Shown here: piece by piece, positions 2,835 to 21,581 of the stretch
How the letters are laid out: each line of letters begins with the position of its first letter
Position numbering within the stretch: position 1 is the first letter of the stretch
From: a virus
Lineage: Duplodnaviria; Heunggongvirae; Uroviricota; Caudoviricetes
Length of the DNA: 41,901 nt
Strand: one strand, 5' to 3'
Virus record (IMG/VR): IMGVR_UViG_2541047898_000007
Made by a program: the position numbers and the translations under genes
The notes under the pieces: generated by a model
Told to the model about the DNA's origin: nothing
Database searches by the model: none
The model's input: the letters and a program-made list of their open reading frames with translations, nothing else

Positions 2835-5800
2835 TTATGCCTGAGTACGCAGCGCTTCAAGGCGGCGCAGGTCGAAGTCGTTCAGTTCGTCGGTGTAGTC
2901 AGCAGTGATTGGCGCTGGCCATTCACCTGTGTCGAATCCGGTTGCGATATTGCGCATCGCTTTGCGGTACTCGAGCATACCCAGCTCCAGTAGTTCAGCG
3001 GATGCCTCGATGATGGCGATCCAGTGGTAGTTCTCGTCTTTGTTGACGAAAATCCAGAAGAACTGATCCAGCGCTGCGGTTTCGCAGTACATAGCCGCGC
3101 TCAGGTGATAATCACGTTCAATAATTTCCCGGTGTAGCCTGGCGCGCAGGCTTTCCTGCTTAACATTCCACATGCTGATGGTTTTCAGGTCTGCACCTAT
3201 ACGCACGCCATCCAGGTCGATCTCAAGGTCAGGGCGCACACGAACTTCCAAGCCCGTCTCCTCGTCAAAACCAAAGTAGCTCACCTCAACGGCTCGGCTA
3301 GGGTGGGTCAGCAGCATGCCGGCGGTCGGGTGTGCCAGAAGCGCTTTTTGAATATTCAGCGCGGTGCTCAGCTGCTGGCGGGTGACCAGCACTTTTCCTT
3401 CCGGGTTATCGCGCCAGGCATCCAGCAGTTCGTCGGCAAATACGGCATCTGGTTTGACTGCCTTCACGGCCTGGATCATGTCTGCTTTGGTACCGGACAC
3501 TTTCAGTGGTGCCGGTTTCTGTGCTTCCTGAGCCACAAGGTCAGGGTTGATGATTGCCAACTGCTCCAGCAGCGCGTCACGGCTGCCGCTGGTTTTAACC
3601 GGCGGCGGCAGGGTGGCGTTGTACTCTTTAATGCATGCCTTCATTGCCGTCGCCGTCTGCTTCTGGTCACCATCAATACGCTGGAAGTCAGCTGGCAGCG
3701 CCATATAGTTCTGTGCCGTTTCTTCCAGGTTAGCGCCAAGCGGAACCTGCGGCGGCAGGGTGGCGTTGTACTCTTCCAGTAACACCTTGATGTCGTCGGC
3801 AGACAGCAGCGCCGGCAGGCTGGCATTGTGCTCATCGATAAAGGCGCGCAGGGTCGCGGCCGTTGTGAATGCGCCTTCAGGGATCACCGGTTCAACGCTG
3901 AATTCTGCGTCCAGTAGTTCAGGCTGCAACGCCAGCGCATGCACCAAGTTGCCCATGTCCAGCACCGCTGAGCGCTCTTTGACGATGGTTTTCTCTACGT
4001 GGCGCGCATTGAAGTACATCAGCGAAACGCGCGCATCTTTCACCTGGGTTGAGCTGATGCCGTTGGCGGCGTGGTAAACCTCGTTTGGCAGCCCTTCATA
4101 GCGGCCTGGCTCGAAATAAGCGGGATAAACAACAGCTGGTTCGTCAGATTGCGCTTCTGGCTCGGTTTGTGCTGCAACTGGTTCGGTTTGGCTTACAGAA
4201 TCGCTATTTTTGGCGACAGAATCCGTATTCTGGTCTACATCGTCCTTCTGGCTGGTATCTGACTCTTCACCAGACTCCAGACTGCTTTCGCCTGGCTGTA
4301 CTTCATCACCAGCTTGTTTTTCATCACTGACAGTTTCTTGAACCTGCACATTGCTGGTGGTCTCCGTAGCCTTTTTCGTGCCATGAGTTGCTGAGTTCTG
4401 CAGCAAAGCCGTAACGTCGAATATTCCGTTGCCGACATTTTTAACCAGTTCTTGTTCGACTTTCTGCGGTTGTGCTGCCGCTTCCTCTGCGCGGCGGCGT
4501 GCTCCTTCTTCACGCACGCGTTGCAGGTTCTCTTCGTGAGTGCAGAAGGATTTGCGCGGAGACTCCTTACCTTCAGGTTGGGGAATTTCCTGTGCTGCGG
4601 GTTCAGCCTCATGCAACGGCAATAACTCGACCGCGGAATTGAACGCGGCTGTCATGGTCTGGTTAACAAATTCCAGGTGAGCGACAGGAGTTAAATGAAT
4701 ATTTTCCGGTGCGATACGTACCAGGTTAAAAATAGCCGTGCGGTTAACACCCAGAACGCCTGGCTGATTGCGCAGGATGTTGCTCCATGATTTCCATGGT
4801 TCTTCTTTTTTGGTCACGATTTCTTTAGCGCGACGAAGAATGCTGCCCGGGATCTCGAAGTGGTTGAAGTCCATAGGCAGAAGGGCACACGCAATCTCTA
4901 AATCGAGAGTGTCCAGTGTGTGGTGTGCGTCAGGTCCACGGTCAGTGACGTAACCGCCGTCGGCATTAGTGCCGGAATCAGTACGCTGCACACTACTGAT
5001 GCGATTACCGGCGGCCCATTCGCGAACGAGGATACCGCGGTCGATGTGATCTGTAGCGAACCACAATTTCAAAAACTGGATTAAGGTTGCGAGTTCAGGG
5101 ATTTTTCCATCGACAGGGAAGACTTTCTTAACGGCATTCACGACTTTATGAATATCGTGCTCAATGGCTTTTTTGAATGCTTCCACATTCTCAGCTGCCA
5201 GCAGCAGGTTCTGGACGTACGCGTCATCGGTGTCCATCTCAAGGCGGACAATCTCATTTTTCTGCCCTGCGTCGATGTGATAGAGATATTCACCATCACC
5301 GATGAACTGAGCCAGTACGCGCTGGCGGAATGGCAGGGTGGCAACAACGATCAGGTTCGGTTGCTGTGTCTGCTGGGATTGCTCTTCGGTATCGACTTCA
5401 CCATCAACGACGCCACCTTCTGCCCGGCCGTTCTCGTCGGTCTGGATACCGTCCTCAACAGTGAGATCTTGACCCGTTGTAACGTCAGCAGCGTTGCTGG
5501 TTTCAGTTTTGAGCAACTGCAACTTACCACTGCGCCAGTCTTCTACCAGTTGATTGCGGTCACCGGCATCGGTGTTCACCCAGTCAGACATGAATGCAGC
5601 GATCAATCTTGGCTCGTGCTCTTCGTCTGGTGTGAAAATGTCCTTAACCGCCCGAATCATTTTCCACTCAGCATTCAGGCTGAGTTTGGCGGTCGCGGGC
5701 ACATCGTTCCTTGCCACAAGCAGGCTATGGAGATATGTATTGCCTTCATCCAGTGACATTTCGCTGGCAGCCAACTGCTGCTCTTTAGTGACGTGGGTTT

Positions 5801-16645: not shown

Positions 16646-16676
16646 TCGCCCCGGCACCCGCTGGGGCTTTTTTATT
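16646..16676 (+). terminator. Rho-independent terminator upstream of the lysis cassette (possibly tR'-like)
   Basis: cgccccggcacccgctggggc hairpin followed by tttttt. Confidence 0.5.
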
Positions 16677-16789
16677 TCCGGCTCACGGTAATCATCCGCT
16701 ACGTGCTTTGTTGATAAATCCAACCCGTGAAGCCTGAGCCTATTTCCCCTCATACCTGAGAGGACTCACAGCAATTAAGAGGGGGCTAA

Positions 16790-17444: not shown

Positions 17445-18058
17445 TGAACCAACAATTATTTCAAAAGGCGGCTGGTATCAGCGCCGGACTGGCTGTGCGC
17501 TGGTTTCAACCAGTAGATGCAGCGATGAAAGAATTCGGCATTACAGCACCCGCGGATCAGGCCATGTTCATCGCTCAGGTAGGTCATGAGTCTGGTGGCT
17601 TTAGCGCTGTAGTTGAAAATTTGAACTACACACCATCTGCGCTGGTGGCGACGTTCGGAAAGAGGATCACACAGCAGCAGGCTGATGCCCTTGGCAGAAC
17701 ATCCGGACATGCAGCTCGTCAGGATGCTATTGCCAATCTGGTGTATAGCAACCGCCTGGGTAACAAAGCGCCCGGCGACGGCTGGAAATATCGCGGCAGA
17801 GGGTTAATTCAAATCACTGGCCTCGACAATTATCGCACCTGCGGGGCTGCTCTGAAGTTAGATTTGGTGACTTCACCTGAACAACTGGAACAGGAACTAC
17901 AGGCTGCGCGCTCAGCTGCATGGTTCTACACCTCTAAAGGCTGCATGATCTACGGTGCCGATATTAATCGTGTTACTCGCATCATTAACGGCGGTCTGAA
18001 CGGTATTGAGGATCGTAAGGTCCGATACAACAAGGCGCGGGCGGCGCTGCTGGTATGA
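17444..18058 (+). CDS. Endolysin, glycoside hydrolase family 19 (chitinase-like lysozyme)
   Basis: 204 aa; FIAQVGHESGGF and GRGLIQITG motifs typical of GH19 phage endolysins. Confidence 0.75.
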   Translation: MNQQLFQKAAGISAGLAVRWFQPVDAAMKEFGITAPADQAMFIAQVGHESGGFSAVVENLNYTPSALVATFGKRITQQQADALGRTSGHAARQDAIANLVYSNRLGNKAPGDGWKYRGRGLIQITGLDNYRTCGAALKLDLVTSPEQLEQELQAARSAAWFYTSKGCMIYGADINRVTRIINGGLNGIEDRKVRYNKARAALLV

Positions 18059-18447
18059 AGATGAGTTATTGGGCGCTTATTTTAACGTTTATTGCTTGTA
18101 TTGCTGGTGGTCTTGTCTGGTCAGCGAATCATTACCATGGAAAGTTTCTGGAGGAACAGCGGCGCGCTGACGATGCAGAACAGCGCGCTGATTCCTTTGA
18201 GACCATCACCGCGAATGTCCTGCGCACCGTAGCAATAACGAACATCATTCTGGAGACAAATCAATATGCCAGGCAGCAGATCGCACTGGAGTCACAGAGA
18301 ACCGAGAACGATATCAAGGCTGCTGTTGCGGATGATGATTGTGCTGTTCGTTTTGTGCCTTCTGGCGCAGTTAAGCGGCTGCACGACTACGCGAACGGTC
18401 TACGTTCCAGTTCCGGTGGTTCCGTTACCAGCCAACCTGACGGCTGA
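18055..18447 (+). CDS. Rz-like i-spanin
   Basis: 130 aa; N-terminal TM helix then coiled-coil-like periplasmic domain; follows the endolysin. Confidence 0.6.
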   Translation: MKMSYWALILTFIACIAGGLVWSANHYHGKFLEEQRRADDAEQRADSFETITANVLRTVAITNIILETNQYARQQIALESQRTENDIKAAVADDDCAVRFVPSGAVKRLHDYANGLRSSSGGSVTSQPDG

Positions 18448-18610
18448 AACACCCCAGCCAGATTTACCCGATCCGTTTACGTGGGGAGCAAGCCTTAACC
18501 TGAATGTTGCGTTGTTGTCAGCGTTAGCACAGTGCAACAGGGATAAGGCTGATATCAGGACTTTCGAGAACAACAGGGCAGGACAAACAGATGGCACGAT
18601 TAAACGTTGA
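18332..18610 (+). CDS. Rz1-like o-spanin lipoprotein, nested in the +1 frame of Rz and extending beyond it
   Basis: Internal start MMIVLFVLCLLAQLSGC gives a signal peptide with lipobox LSGC; Pro-rich mature region. Confidence 0.55.
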   Translation: MMIVLFVLCLLAQLSGCTTTRTVYVPVPVVPLPANLTAETPQPDLPDPFTWGASLNLNVALLSALAQCNRDKADIRTFENNRAGQTDGTIKR

Positions 18611-18776
18611 AGTTATCCCACCAGACAGCGAGGTGCTGAACGGGATTTTTGCAGAGATTGAGCGCAAATATGCGCGTCAGCCGCTGACGCCAAAAGTAAT
18701 TGATGAAATGCAACGCGAAGCGACGCGCCTTGTACGGCGAATGATAACCACAAAGGTTACGTTCGTCCGGGACTGA
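18591..18776 (+). CDS. Hypothetical small protein
   Basis: 61 aa ORF overlapping the Rz1 end. Confidence 0.3.
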   Translation: MARLNVEVIPPDSEVLNGIFAEIERKYARQPLTPKVIDEMQREATRLVRRMITTKVTFVRD

Positions 18777-18830
18777 CATTACAGAAGCCCTTCACTGAGG
18801 GGCTTCGATAATGGAGCACTGGGATTATTC

Positions 18831-19451
18831 ATGAACAGACCACACCCACCAGCGCATTTTACGATGCCACCTGACCCGAAGCCTTACATCAGCATAATGC
18901 CCGCCATTGACGTTGGCGAGTGGCTGAATCAGCACATCCTGAGCGATGAGGGTGACCTCTACAACCCTGACCACCAGCATTTGCTTGAAGCGGATCTGTG
19001 CTTTCTCTGGGCGTCGAACACTTTCGAGAAGAAAGGGCGGTCCGTGCTGGGGCAGGCGGAAGAAGTGGCAATGCGGGCTGGAGGCTGGCAGAAAGCGCGG
19101 ATGGAGCAGCAGATGTATGAATGGTTCGGCAGGGTGCCGCAGTTCATCATCACGCTGGCCGCCGATTACTGCTCGCAATGTTCCGATCTGGAATTCTGCG
19201 CGCTGATAGAGCACGAGCTTTATCACATCTGCCAAGCGACAGATGAATTTGGTGCGCCGAAGTTCACGCAGGAAGGGCAGCCAAAGCTGAAGCTGCGCGG
19301 CCATGACGTGGAAGAGTTTGTGGGCGTGGTTCGCCGTTACGGTGCGAGCCGGGACGTGCAGGAAATGATTGATGCGGCGAATCAGCCAGCGGAGGTTGCT
19401 CATCTCGATATTGCCAGAGCGTGCGGGACGTGCATGCTGCGACTGGCTTAA
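18831..19451 (+). CDS. HExxH-motif protein, putative zinc metallopeptidase-like, between lysis and packaging modules
   Basis: 206 aa; IEHELYHI contains HExxH; additional Cys pairs (CSQCSD, CGTC); co-oriented with the late operon. Confidence 0.45.
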   Translation: MNRPHPPAHFTMPPDPKPYISIMPAIDVGEWLNQHILSDEGDLYNPDHQHLLEADLCFLWASNTFEKKGRSVLGQAEEVAMRAGGWQKARMEQQMYEWFGRVPQFIITLAADYCSQCSDLEFCALIEHELYHICQATDEFGAPKFTQEGQPKLKLRGHDVEEFVGVVRRYGASRDVQEMIDAANQPAEVAHLDIARACGTCMLRLA

Positions 19452-19482
19452 ATACTGGACTGTATAAGACGAATGGTGATTT

Positions 19483-19956
19483 ATGGCTGCATTAAAACCT
19501 GATGTGAAAGCCTTCATCATTCAGTCGCTTGCGTGCTATGACACGCCATCGCAGGTGGTCGAGGCTGTCCAAAAAGAATTCGGGATCAGGATCACCCGCC
19601 AGCAGGCTGAATCTCACGACCCCACGAAGGCCAGCGGTAAGACGCTCGCCAAAAAGTGGATCGAGATGTTCCACGCGACGCGCGAACGGTTCCTGACCGA
19701 AACCAGCGACATTCCGATAGCGAACAAATCCTATCGCCTCCGCGTGCTTGACCGCATGGCAACCAAAACCGAGGGGATGAAAAACTTCTCCCTGACGGCG
19801 CAGCTTATCGAACAGGCCGCGAAAGAGGTTGGCGACGCTTACACCAATAAGCTGAAGGTTGAGAGCACTGGCAAGGATGGCGGCCCGATCAAGACCGAGA
19901 CGACCAACCTCACCGCAGATCAGGCCGCAGAGATTTACCGCAAGATGATGGGGTGA
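19483..19956 (+). CDS. Terminase small subunit
   Basis: 157 aa; immediately upstream of and overlapping the large terminase start. Confidence 0.55.
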
Positions 19957-21581
19957 TCATGCCTCTCCCGTTTGAATTCGATTTCAGAAACCCTGATTAC
20001 CAGATGGTTTTTGAATGGCGGATGGAGCGCTTACAGCGCATTCGCCAGAACCCTGAAATGCTGCCAGCGCTAAAGCAGTTTTACCGCACCAACCCGGCAC
20101 AGTTCATCATCGACTGGGGTATGACGACTGACCCGCGTAACATCGATTATGGCCTGCCGGTCACCATCCCTTTTCTGCTGTTCCCGAAACAGGAAGAATG
20201 GATTCACTGGATCATGGAGCGGCGCGAACGGCTGGAGAACGGCATCACCGAAAAGAGCCGCGAAATGGGGCTCAGTTGGACCGCGATCGGGCTGGCCTGC
20301 TCGCTTTGTCTCTTCAACAAAGAAATGGTCATCGGTTTCGGCTCCCGTAAAGAGGAATACGTCGACAGCACCGGTGACCCGAAGGCGCTGTTCTGGAAGG
20401 CGCGAAAGTTCGTGGAAACACTGCCCATCGAGTTTCGTGGTTCGTGGGACGAGAAGAAGCATGCGCCGTATATGCGCGTTGAGTTTCCAGATACTGGCGC
20501 GGTTATCAAAGGCGAGGCTGGCGACAATATCGGACGTGGTGACCGTACCACGCTCTACCTGGTGGATGAAGCTGCATTCCTCCAGCGTCCTCTGTTGATT
20601 GATGCGGCGCTGTCGCAAACCACCCGTTGCCGTATTGACCTGAGCTCGGTTAATGGCATGGCGAACCCGTTCGCGCAGAAGCGCCACGGCGGAAAAATAC
20701 CAGTATTCACGTTCCACTGGCGAGATGACCCGCGCAAGGATGAAGAGTGGTATCGCAGGGAGTGCGAGAAAATCGACAATCCGGTGGTGGTGGCGCAGGA
20801 ACTTGACCTGAACTACAGCGCATCTGCGGAAGGCGTCCTGATCCCGTCCGACTGGGTACAGGCTGCCGTCGACGCGCATATCAAACTTGGTATTCAGCCA
20901 ACGGGCAAGCGACTGGGCGCGATGGACGTCGCCGACGAAGGCCGGGACAAAAATGCCTTTTCGACCCGTCACGGCTTCCTTCTGGAGAACGTGCGTGAAT
21001 GGTCCGGCGTTGGCAGCGACATTTACCAGTCTGTTGAGAAGGTCTTCGGCTTTTGCGAACAGGACAACCTCGAAGAGTTTCGCTTCGACGAGGACGGCCT
21101 GGGTGCTGGCGTTCGCGGCGATGCGCGCGCCATCAACGAACTGCGTTACGCAGCGCGCCGACCGTCAATACTCGCCACACCGTTTCGTGGTAGCGGCGCG
21201 GTATTTGATCCGGACGATGAAGCGGTGCGCGGGGACAACGGACAGGCCGCACGCCTGAACAAGGACTTCTTCGCCAACGCCAAGGCCCAGAGCTGGTGGT
21301 GGCTACGCAAGCTTTTCCAGAACACCTATCGCGCCGTGGTTGAGGGCATGGCCTACAACCCGGACGAAATCATCTCAATCAGCAGCGCCATGGCGAGCAA
21401 AGACAAACTCATCATTGAGCTGTCGCAGCCGACCTACTCCATTAATGGCGTGGGGAAAATCGTTGTTGATAAACAGCCTGATGGCACCAAGTCGCCGAAC
21501 CTCGCCGACTCGGTGATGATCAGCTACGCGCCAATGAATTCAGCCCTGAACATCTGGGAGCTGCTAGGGAGACAGGCCTGA
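19953..21581 (+). CDS. Terminase large subunit
   Basis: 542 aa; GTG start overlapping terS stop; size and position typical; ATPase-like N-terminal region and nuclease-like C-terminal region. Confidence 0.8.

Follow-up and report, generated by a model that had tools for sequence, protein, structure and literature searches.

A putative metallopeptidase gene linked to DUF2280-type small terminase genes in a lambdoid prophage and its relatives

Between the lysis genes and the DNA packaging genes of a lambdoid myovirus-type prophage lies a gene for a 206-residue protein with a HELYH motif, and its position raises the question of whether it is accessory cargo or a part of the packaging module. The window, by which we mean the whole stretch of 41,901 nucleotides that was analyzed, contains on the lysis side a tR'-like terminator (16648), holin-like genes, a GH19 endolysin gene, and the Rz/Rz1 spanin genes, and these are followed on the packaging side by a 61-aa ORF, the 206-aa ORF (18831-19451, plus strand), a DUF2280 gene, the gene for the large terminase subunit (TerL), and portal and head genes. 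The spanin pair (18055-18610, plus strand) consists of an Rz-like gene at 18055-18447 and an Rz1/LysC gene at 18266-18610 in another frame, and its assignment comes from a Pfam LysC match (E 4e-18) and from the PGAP annotation of relatives; the lysis cassette ends with this pair, which also borders a variable slot on the left. The DUF2280 protein is 157 aa long (19483-19956, plus strand; Pfam DUF2280, PF10045, E 9e-50), and the stop of its gene overlaps the start of the gene for TerL (542 aa; 19953-21581, plus strand). TerL shares 96% identity with the protein annotated as TerL in phage vB_EcoM-606R2 and is called 'bacteriophage TerL protein' in some PGAP records. Positions 18300-19960 are 100% identical to a prophage of E. 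coli O19:H7 strain 730V1. The 730V1 prophage adjoins tRNA-Thr and proA.

The sequence-only reading of this region had given three open reading frames, of 206 aa and 61 aa on the plus strand and of 231 aa on the opposite strand, and all of them are present exactly as given. The antisense ORF (18825-19520, minus strand) covers the 206-aa gene, and the plus strand had been favored. Comparison with relatives whose proteins are 90-97% identical bears this out: substitutions fall overwhelmingly at codon position 3 of the plus frame, which is position 1 of the antisense frame. The counts at positions 1, 2, and 3 are 7, 4, and 57 in one relative (L069; 57 of 68 at position 3) and 16, 10, and 61 in another (L073). 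In relatives with 81-91% protein identity (L072-L075, L079), the longest open stretch of the antisense ORF is only 92-115 aa, and neither Pfam nor PHROG contains a family that matches it. Given the position-3 substitutions, the interrupted antisense frame, and the lack of an antisense family match, we conclude that the plus strand is the coding strand, and we reject the antisense ORF as a gene. The 206-aa gene is under purifying selection. The 61-aa ORF (18591-18776, plus strand) is a real gene as judged from its sequence relationships, since PHROG 12811 matches it over its full length (E 2e-35), its homologues at 52-60% identity keep a length of 60-61 aa, and their substitutions follow the order of codon positions 3 > 1 > 2 (41, 19, and 10).

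A search of peptidase families had been proposed as a check on the HELYH motif. When run with Pfam, it places the 206-aa protein in PF18894 (PhageMetallopep, 'Putative phage metallopeptidase', zincin-like) at E 2e-43 and 148 bits, where the gathering cut-off is 23.7, and the match covers model positions 2-134 of 134. The protein also falls in PHROG 513, which is labeled "transposase", and PGAP annotates WP_001567573.1, 'putative metallopeptidase', at the same position of the identical 730V1 stretch. We found 3,500 homologues at E ≤ 0.001, which reduce to 890 representatives at 50% identity. The protein is therefore a plain member, indistinguishable in kind from the rest, of a named, widespread, and RefSeq-labeled family, and as such is already catalogued, although the function in the family's name is putative. 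A search of the available literature returned no biochemical or genetic study of PF18894, NCBIfam holds no model for the protein, and the sole PADLOC match (12 bits, E 0.013) is to an unrelated model.

When 75 representatives with 33-53% identity to the window protein are aligned, the residues that the family retains stand out. H128, E129, H132, H158, G171, C198, and G199 are invariant, and H48, H50, D159, and E161 are each more than 90% conserved (D159 in 70 and E161 in 74 of the 75 sequences). The HELYH motif, at residues 128-132 (nucleotides 19212-19226, plus strand), is thus as the sequence-only reading described it, with its histidines and glutamate present in 75 of 75 sequences. This invariance, together with the match over the whole PF18894 model, argues that the HExxH is not a chance motif. 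H128 and H132 would hold the catalytic metal with E129 as the general base, and H158 (19302-19304), or its neighbor D159 or E161, is the candidate third ligand. The same reading had suggested that pairs of cysteines might bind a second metal, and here the alignment separates two pairs. The C-terminal pair of the C198-G-x-C201 sequence (19422-19433) is conserved, C198 in all 75 sequences and C201 in 67, but the CSQC pair is not, with cysteine found in just 12 (C114) and 18 (C117) of the 75. C123 and a cysteine after the motif are conserved in approximately 70%. A conserved second metal site built not from CSQC but from H48 and H50 (18972-18980) together with C198 and C201 is plausible, and it is probably a structural one that ties together the two termini of the protein. 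Conservation of the residues is the basis on which H158 and H48, H50, C198, and C201 are proposed as candidate ligands.

The structure prediction is a confident one (AF2 model, pLDDT 94.5, pTM 0.88). It places HExxH at the end of a predicted helix at residues 119-131 and contains the core fold of a zincin, namely a mixed sheet, a backing helix, and an active-site helix, which answers the part of the earlier reading's structural check that concerned the fold. The values listed in the structural comparison are 7.2 for projannalysin, 6.5 for selecase, 6.4 for the SprT domain of Spartan, 5.8 for BepA, 5.7 for both proabylysin and YbeY, and 4.9 for Wss1. These alignments span approximately 90 of the 206 residues at 10-16% identity, and the best matches are peptidases. 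Searches of the PDB by sequence, with the protein and with its profile, gave nothing significant; a Foldseek search of the PDB likewise gave nothing significant (best E 0.31), and BFVD returned family members and weak matches only. The model thus suggests that the core of the protein is a minimal zincin with family-specific additions, these being an N-terminal helix with a D-H-x-H sequence, a beta-hairpin between HExxH and H158, and a C-terminal helical part that ends in C-G-x-C. Taken together, the metallopeptidase reading stands at the level of family, motif, and fold, and it is from these that the metal ligands and the peptidase chemistry are inferred.

The relationship to characterized zincins is one of core fold. 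Minigluzincins (projannalysin, proabylysin, and selecase) and M48/M56 catalytic domains (BepA, HtpX, and BlaR1) align over the core, some 90 of the 206 residues, at 10-14% identity, but neither sequence-level nor Foldseek searches match them to the window protein, and they differ from it by the D-H-x-H helix, the hairpin between HExxH and H158, and the C-G-x-C helical end. SprT, Spartan, and Wss1 are DNA-targeted minimal zincins. The window protein has no SprT-like or WLM match in Pfam at E ≤ 0.1, which leaves it outside that group, and the spacing between its HExxH and the candidate third histidine is 25 residues, which we take to be longer than in Spartan or Wss1.

The sequence-only reading had regarded the lysis/packaging junction as a slot for morons, with the peptidase gene and the 61-aa ORF as inserts. 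This fits the 61-aa ORF but is not supported for the peptidase gene. The 1.2 kb that precedes the peptidase gene was compared in 76 close relatives and sorts into at least 25 classes with no relationship to one another; the slot holds the 61-aa ORF, KilAC/ANT-like proteins, or other small genes, and in some relatives the spanin gene ends right at the leader of the peptidase gene. The 61-aa ORF, which occupies the slot between the spanins and this leader in the window, is present in 34 of 80 close relatives, as expected for a moron. None of the 80 lacks the peptidase gene, and only the 61-aa ORF behaves as cargo of the slot. A check of conservation and position across related prophages, which the sequence-only reading had also proposed, therefore finds a constant gene with upstream neighbors that vary. 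No conserved family occupies the gene upstream of the peptidase gene: DUF5131, ANT, NusG-like, and GIY-YIG matches occur once each, and the rest are unassigned. An HNH/Vsr-like gene lies directly upstream in Acinetobacter and Burkholderia phages, and given the heterogeneity of the upstream genes this "HNH" link is specific to those lineages.

The conserved block begins approximately 55 nt before the ATG of the peptidase gene. Its left edge is marked by a stem-loop in the leader (18777-18813, plus strand) with the sequence CAUUA..GAAGCCCUUC-ACU-GAGGGGCUUC..UAAUG. The predicted folding energy is -22.2 kcal/mol (z -4.4), and 0 of 200 shuffled sequences fold as well. The leader is identical or nearly so in relatives with differing upstream genes, and in two loci (L038 and L042) a variant stem (AAGCCCAUC/GGUGGGCUU) keeps the pairing with a different sequence. 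The stem-loop lacks a U-tract and is therefore not a canonical terminator, and because a search of Rfam over the whole window gave no match, it is not a catalogued RNA either. A moron would be expected to carry its own promoter and terminator. Weak consensus scans detected neither for the peptidase gene: one promoter-like site lies inside the gene, two such sites occur in 4.2 kb where 3.7 are expected from shuffled sequences, and no terminator-like site follows the gene.

What does stay with the peptidase gene is the gene downstream. In the peptidase-seeded sample (118 loci and the window), DUF2280 lies downstream in 109 of 119 sources, mostly adjacent and with a few gaps of up to approximately 870 nt. 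Conversely, the peptidase gene lies immediately upstream in 77 of 78 viral loci that were seeded with DUF2280. The arrangement extends to bacterial genomes: in a sample of species-representative loci from Alpha- and Betaproteobacteria, Armatimonadota, Acidobacteriota, and Chloroflexota, whose peptidases have 40-55% protein identity, DUF2280 follows at a distance of no more than approximately 800 nt in 77 of 80, and of no more than 400 nt in 66. These locus samples are ranked by similarity and are not random. Counted by genus in the GenBank phage collection, the two genes are almost equally frequent: 62/62 for Acinetobacter, 44/44 for Pseudomonas, 8/8 for Vibrio, 7/7 for Burkholderia, and 8/9 for Klebsiella. 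The peptidase gene precedes the DUF2280 gene in enterophages as well as in Pseudomonas, Acinetobacter, and Vibrio phages, in most loci as its immediate neighbor, and the order peptidase-DUF2280-TerL can be read from Pseudomonas JBD44 (gp16-gp17-gp18), Acinetobacter Ab105-2phi (ORF38-40), and Vibrio Athena1 (0035-0037). Many alphaproteobacterial loci have a spacer of 250-400 nt with no consistent ORF between the two genes, and no conserved small gene was found in the 250-700 nt spacers of these loci. Fusion proteins of the peptidase and DUF2280 were absent from approximately 270 loci. The linkage appears to be undescribed in the searchable literature.

There are exceptions. No peptidase match was found in 181 Salinibacter phage records with a DUF2280 terminase gene, and in the one Salinibacter phage that we inspected a membrane protein gene lies upstream of DUF2280. 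A few peptidase genes lie beside another type of small terminase gene, directly before TerL, or far off (L105, L103/L110, L207, L262, and PHB04), and homologues away from terminase genes occur in PHB04, L086, and L088. These exceptions indicate that the enzyme is not mechanistically indispensable for every DUF2280 terminase. Close adjacency of two genes may also persist through co-inheritance alone.

The TerL candidates downstream of the gene pair form approximately 16 BLASTP clusters, most of which have no detectable similarity to the window TerL, and TerL differs even where the peptidase is 80-97% identical to that of the window (L065, L075-L085). Within the DUF2280 protein, the first 100 aa are clearly more conserved than the rest (82% versus 53% in L075). 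Phage vB_EcoM-606R2 presents the converse case. Its TerL is nearly that of the window, but its small subunit is a Terminase_2 protein (PF03592) that resembles the window DUF2280 protein over the last 39 aa alone (64% identity), and its Rz gene is followed directly by the gene for the small subunit, with no peptidase gene. This swap indicates that the DUF2280 protein is a small terminase subunit (TerS) with a C-terminal tail that matches TerL, and that the peptidase gene travels with the N-terminal domain of the DUF2280 protein and not with TerL. The position of the gene, upstream of TerL and overlapping it, agrees with an assignment of DUF2280 as a putative TerS. No solved structure of a DUF2280 homologue was found. 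The same pattern conflicts with the view of the peptidase gene as a moron inserted at the junction, since the gene is constant among close relatives, tied to DUF2280, and absent with another TerS.

A subset of PF18894 family members (260-327 aa) carries an N-terminal extension that forms a three-helix domain. This extension has weak matches to helix-turn-helix (HTH) families (HTH_Tnp_1 at 3.5e-5 and HTH_8 at 7e-5, and also MerR, HTH_28, and HTH_23), and predictions of the long form show three confident helices, a disordered linker, and the zincin domain. Genome loci with an open frame long enough for the extension (e.g., L217, L235, L259, and L276) still have DUF2280 downstream. The "transposase" label of PHROG 513 and of many phage records probably stems from the weak HTH_Tnp_1-like domain of these long forms, and is probably wrong. 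The HTH-like domain suggests an enzyme that acts on DNA or close to it. For short forms such as that of the window, targeting could come from TerS. An hhalign comparison of the long-form N-terminal HTH with DUF2280 revealed no relationship.

These observations are best accommodated, in our judgment, by a late-expressed zinc hydrolase that is functionally tied to the DUF2280 TerS and has a role in or around the initiation of packaging, a reading to which we assign a probability of roughly 0.55. The 206-aa protein would be made late and would work in the cytoplasm as a zinc-dependent hydrolase with a minimal zincin fold, most likely as a peptidase. Its gene would open the DNA packaging module and would not be accessory cargo. 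The gene and the N-terminal, DNA-recognition domain of a DUF2280-type TerS would be passed on together as one unit, with the C-terminal tail of TerS and TerL exchanged independently of that unit. Inheritance with the N-terminal domain points to packaging initiation by this type of TerS as the step in or around which the peptidase most likely acts. Its substrate may be TerS, or else a protein that binds TerS or the DNA recognized by TerS. A bolder version of this proposal is tentative, and we consider it well short of probable: the peptidase would be a third, previously unrecognized component of DUF2280 terminase modules, and efficient initiation would depend on its cleavage of TerS, or of a protein that sits on TerS or on pac DNA. 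Conceivable candidates for such a protein are a host nucleoid protein and a TerS inhibitor encoded by a satellite or a defense system. A cleavage role associated with TerS would account for the joint exchange of the gene and the DNA-recognition domain of TerS.

Other explanations must be weighed against this reading. The peptidase could be an accessory, moron-like protease that acts on host, defense, or TerS-binding satellite proteins and sits beside DUF2280 merely through co-transfer at the edge of a module. Its location at the lysis/packaging junction next to a hypervariable slot fits this, as do the Salinibacter phages whose DUF2280 terminases lack it and the few homologues away from terminase genes, and zincins serve as effectors across many conflict systems. 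However, the gene is retained in every close relative while its neighbors change; DUF2280 follows it across phyla at 40-55% protein identity; and in 606R2 it is lost together with the DUF2280 domain while TerL is kept. It also lacks its own terminator, has promoter-like sites no more often than shuffled sequence, and has no meaningful PADLOC match, so the moron or anti-defense role that had been suggested for it is not supported, and we regard an accessory protease as unlikely. Less likely again is that the gene is kept for a cis-acting site, such that the pac or recognition DNA of the DUF2280 domain lies inside or beside it and the enzyme's function is unrelated to packaging. Pac phages such as P22 and SPP1 have their recognition site in or just upstream of the TerS gene, the swapped unit spans the leader to the N-terminal domain of TerS, and the alphaproteobacterial spacers without a consistent ORF would be compatible with such a site. 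A synonymous-site scan of 130 distinct gene sequences found a mild dip in variability at peptidase codons 91-115 and in the first ~20 codons of DUF2280. Normalized synonymous codon entropy is nevertheless 0.43-0.76 of the maximum along the whole peptidase gene, where amino acids are conserved, and no segment has strongly suppressed synonymous change; with entropy this high and dips this mild, a strongly conserved embedded DNA element is not evident. Moreover, the catalytic residues are invariant across phyla, which a cis site alone fails to explain and which indicates selection on the protein as such. A pac site in the peptidase region is possible if it is weakly conserved or co-diverging.

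The least probable of the explanations that we considered, and one to which we give little credence, is that the zincin-like fold supports a reaction other than proteolysis, for example that of a YbeY-like metal-dependent nuclease with DNA or RNA as its substrate when packaging starts. Against this, the window protein has a peptidase-type HExxH with an invariant glutamate where YbeY has H-x3-H-x5-H, its best structural matches are peptidases, and TerL already supplies the packaging nuclease. We also considered a role as a head-maturation protease and rejected it, because phages that have the peptidase in common do not have the same head and portal modules (Phage_portal_3/DUF1073 in the window versus DUF4055 in Ab105-2phi).

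The preferred reading, a hydrolase tied to the DUF2280 TerS, has partial parallels in known systems. Like ImmA/IrrE (COG2856, M78), the window locus places the gene of a small HExxH enzyme beside the gene of an HTH DNA-binding protein, and in the ImmA/ImmR and IrrE/DdrO pairs that HTH protein is the substrate of the protease. In contrast to ImmA/IrrE, the window protein has no Peptidase_M78 match and its partner is a small terminase and not a repressor. Purely by analogy with ImmA/ImmR pairs and with SprT/Spartan, one might imagine that the peptidase/DUF2280 pair works in a similar way, with cleavage of the partner. HNH endonucleases of the HK97-like type offer a parallel in position, in that the gene of a small enzyme keeps its place beside the terminase genes across unrelated phages. 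HNH proteins beside terminase have a role in packaging that has been demonstrated; the peptidase family is a different class of enzyme, and its packaging role is a proposed one. Finally, morons of lambdoid phages at the lysis/packaging junction share with the window the position after Rz/Rz1, and the 61-aa ORF and the alternative genes of the slot behave in that manner. The peptidase gene differs from them: it is constant, it follows the type of TerS, and neither a promoter nor a terminator of its own was detected.

These results have consequences for annotation and for the biology of the phages concerned. DUF2280 can be named a small terminase, a correction of the same kind as that of the "transposase" label. 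What makes the context of the peptidase gene noteworthy is that it is attached to one type of TerS across several phyla, survives the exchange of TerL, and disappears when TerS is swapped. We know of no standard packaging model that includes such a protease, and the linkage and the swap pattern together provide a concrete, testable hypothesis of a protease in DNA packaging. Should the linkage prove to be a functional one, a protease would be at work in or around DNA packaging in a large set of temperate phages, among them common prophages of E. coli, Klebsiella, Pseudomonas aeruginosa, and Acinetobacter baumannii.

Directly upstream of the holin region, at positions 16648-16677 of the window, lies a canonical intrinsic terminator with a GC-rich stem and a T-run, which occupies the tR' terminator position of a Q-antiterminated late operon. 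Further downstream, the stretch from the spanins to the leader of the peptidase gene (18448-18776 in the window, with an equivalent 1.2 kb in loci L006-L085) forms a hypervariable slot. Among 76 close relatives, the sequences in this slot fall into at least 25 classes, and in addition to the 61-amino acid ORF found in the window (18591..18776), the slot can hold KilAC/ANT-like antirepressor-type proteins and numerous unknown small genes.

In the relatives compared, a leader of approximately 55 nucleotides with a strong stem-loop is kept alongside the peptidase gene irrespective of what lies upstream. The stem-loop occupies positions 18777-18813 within the leader (18777-18830) that precedes the peptidase start codon, and its predicted RNA fold has an energy of -22 kcal/mol (z -4.4). 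Loci L038 and L042 carry a variant in which the bases differ and the stem is preserved. The stem-loop lacks a U-tract, and a search of Rfam returned no family. It may act in the processing or stability of the RNA, or may mark a recombination boundary. Four loci (L067, L072, L073, and L074) have an additional segment of approximately 85 nucleotides that separates the stem-loop from the start codon, about 110-25 nucleotides before the peptidase ATG, and that is not present in the window. Within it, the imperfect palindrome TTATCCC...GGGATAA occurs twice and resembles a protein-binding site.

In phages of Acinetobacter and Burkholderia, the beginning of the peptidase gene is overlapped by a gene for a small endonuclease (3553-4020 in locus L003, and in phage records). 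Its product is annotated as HNH, and as Vsr-like in one paper and one record; a Pfam search at E <= 0.001 produced no match. The peptidase family itself, PHROG 513, is widely labeled "transposase," for example in JBD44 gp16 and in the phiPSA1 and YMC/09/02/B1251 records. The sole basis that we found for this label is a weak HTH_Tnp_1-like match in the N-terminal extension of the long forms of the family (260-327 amino acids), and "transposase" seems to be a misannotation that has spread between records.

Many alphaproteobacterial prophages (L200, L211, L216, L225, L226, and others) have a spacer of 250-400 nucleotides between the peptidase gene and the DUF2280 gene. No consistent ORF was found in these spacers, which are a candidate pac or regulatory region. 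In the Novosphingobium locus L248, the spacer is occupied by a 227-amino acid ORF with a GIY-YIG-like motif, as judged by eye, and this ORF may therefore encode a homing endonuclease. The DUF2280-type small terminase is also found in 181 records of Salinibacter ruber phages, at 33% identity. In the single such record inspected, Salinibacter phage 4_20 (L197, 3432-4480), a 172-amino acid hydrophobic, membrane-like protein replaces the peptidase upstream of the terminase gene.

The last 39 amino acids of the DUF2280 protein (19837-19953 in the window; counterpart at 3501-3617 in locus L279) form a C-terminal tail that is common to a DUF2280-type and a Terminase_2-type small terminase, with 64% identity. 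The large terminase partners of these two proteins are 96% identical. The tail is thus a swappable module. Because the tail is shared with a Terminase_2-type small terminase, and both types are paired with a 96%-identical large terminase, the comparison argues that small terminase is the proper annotation for DUF2280.
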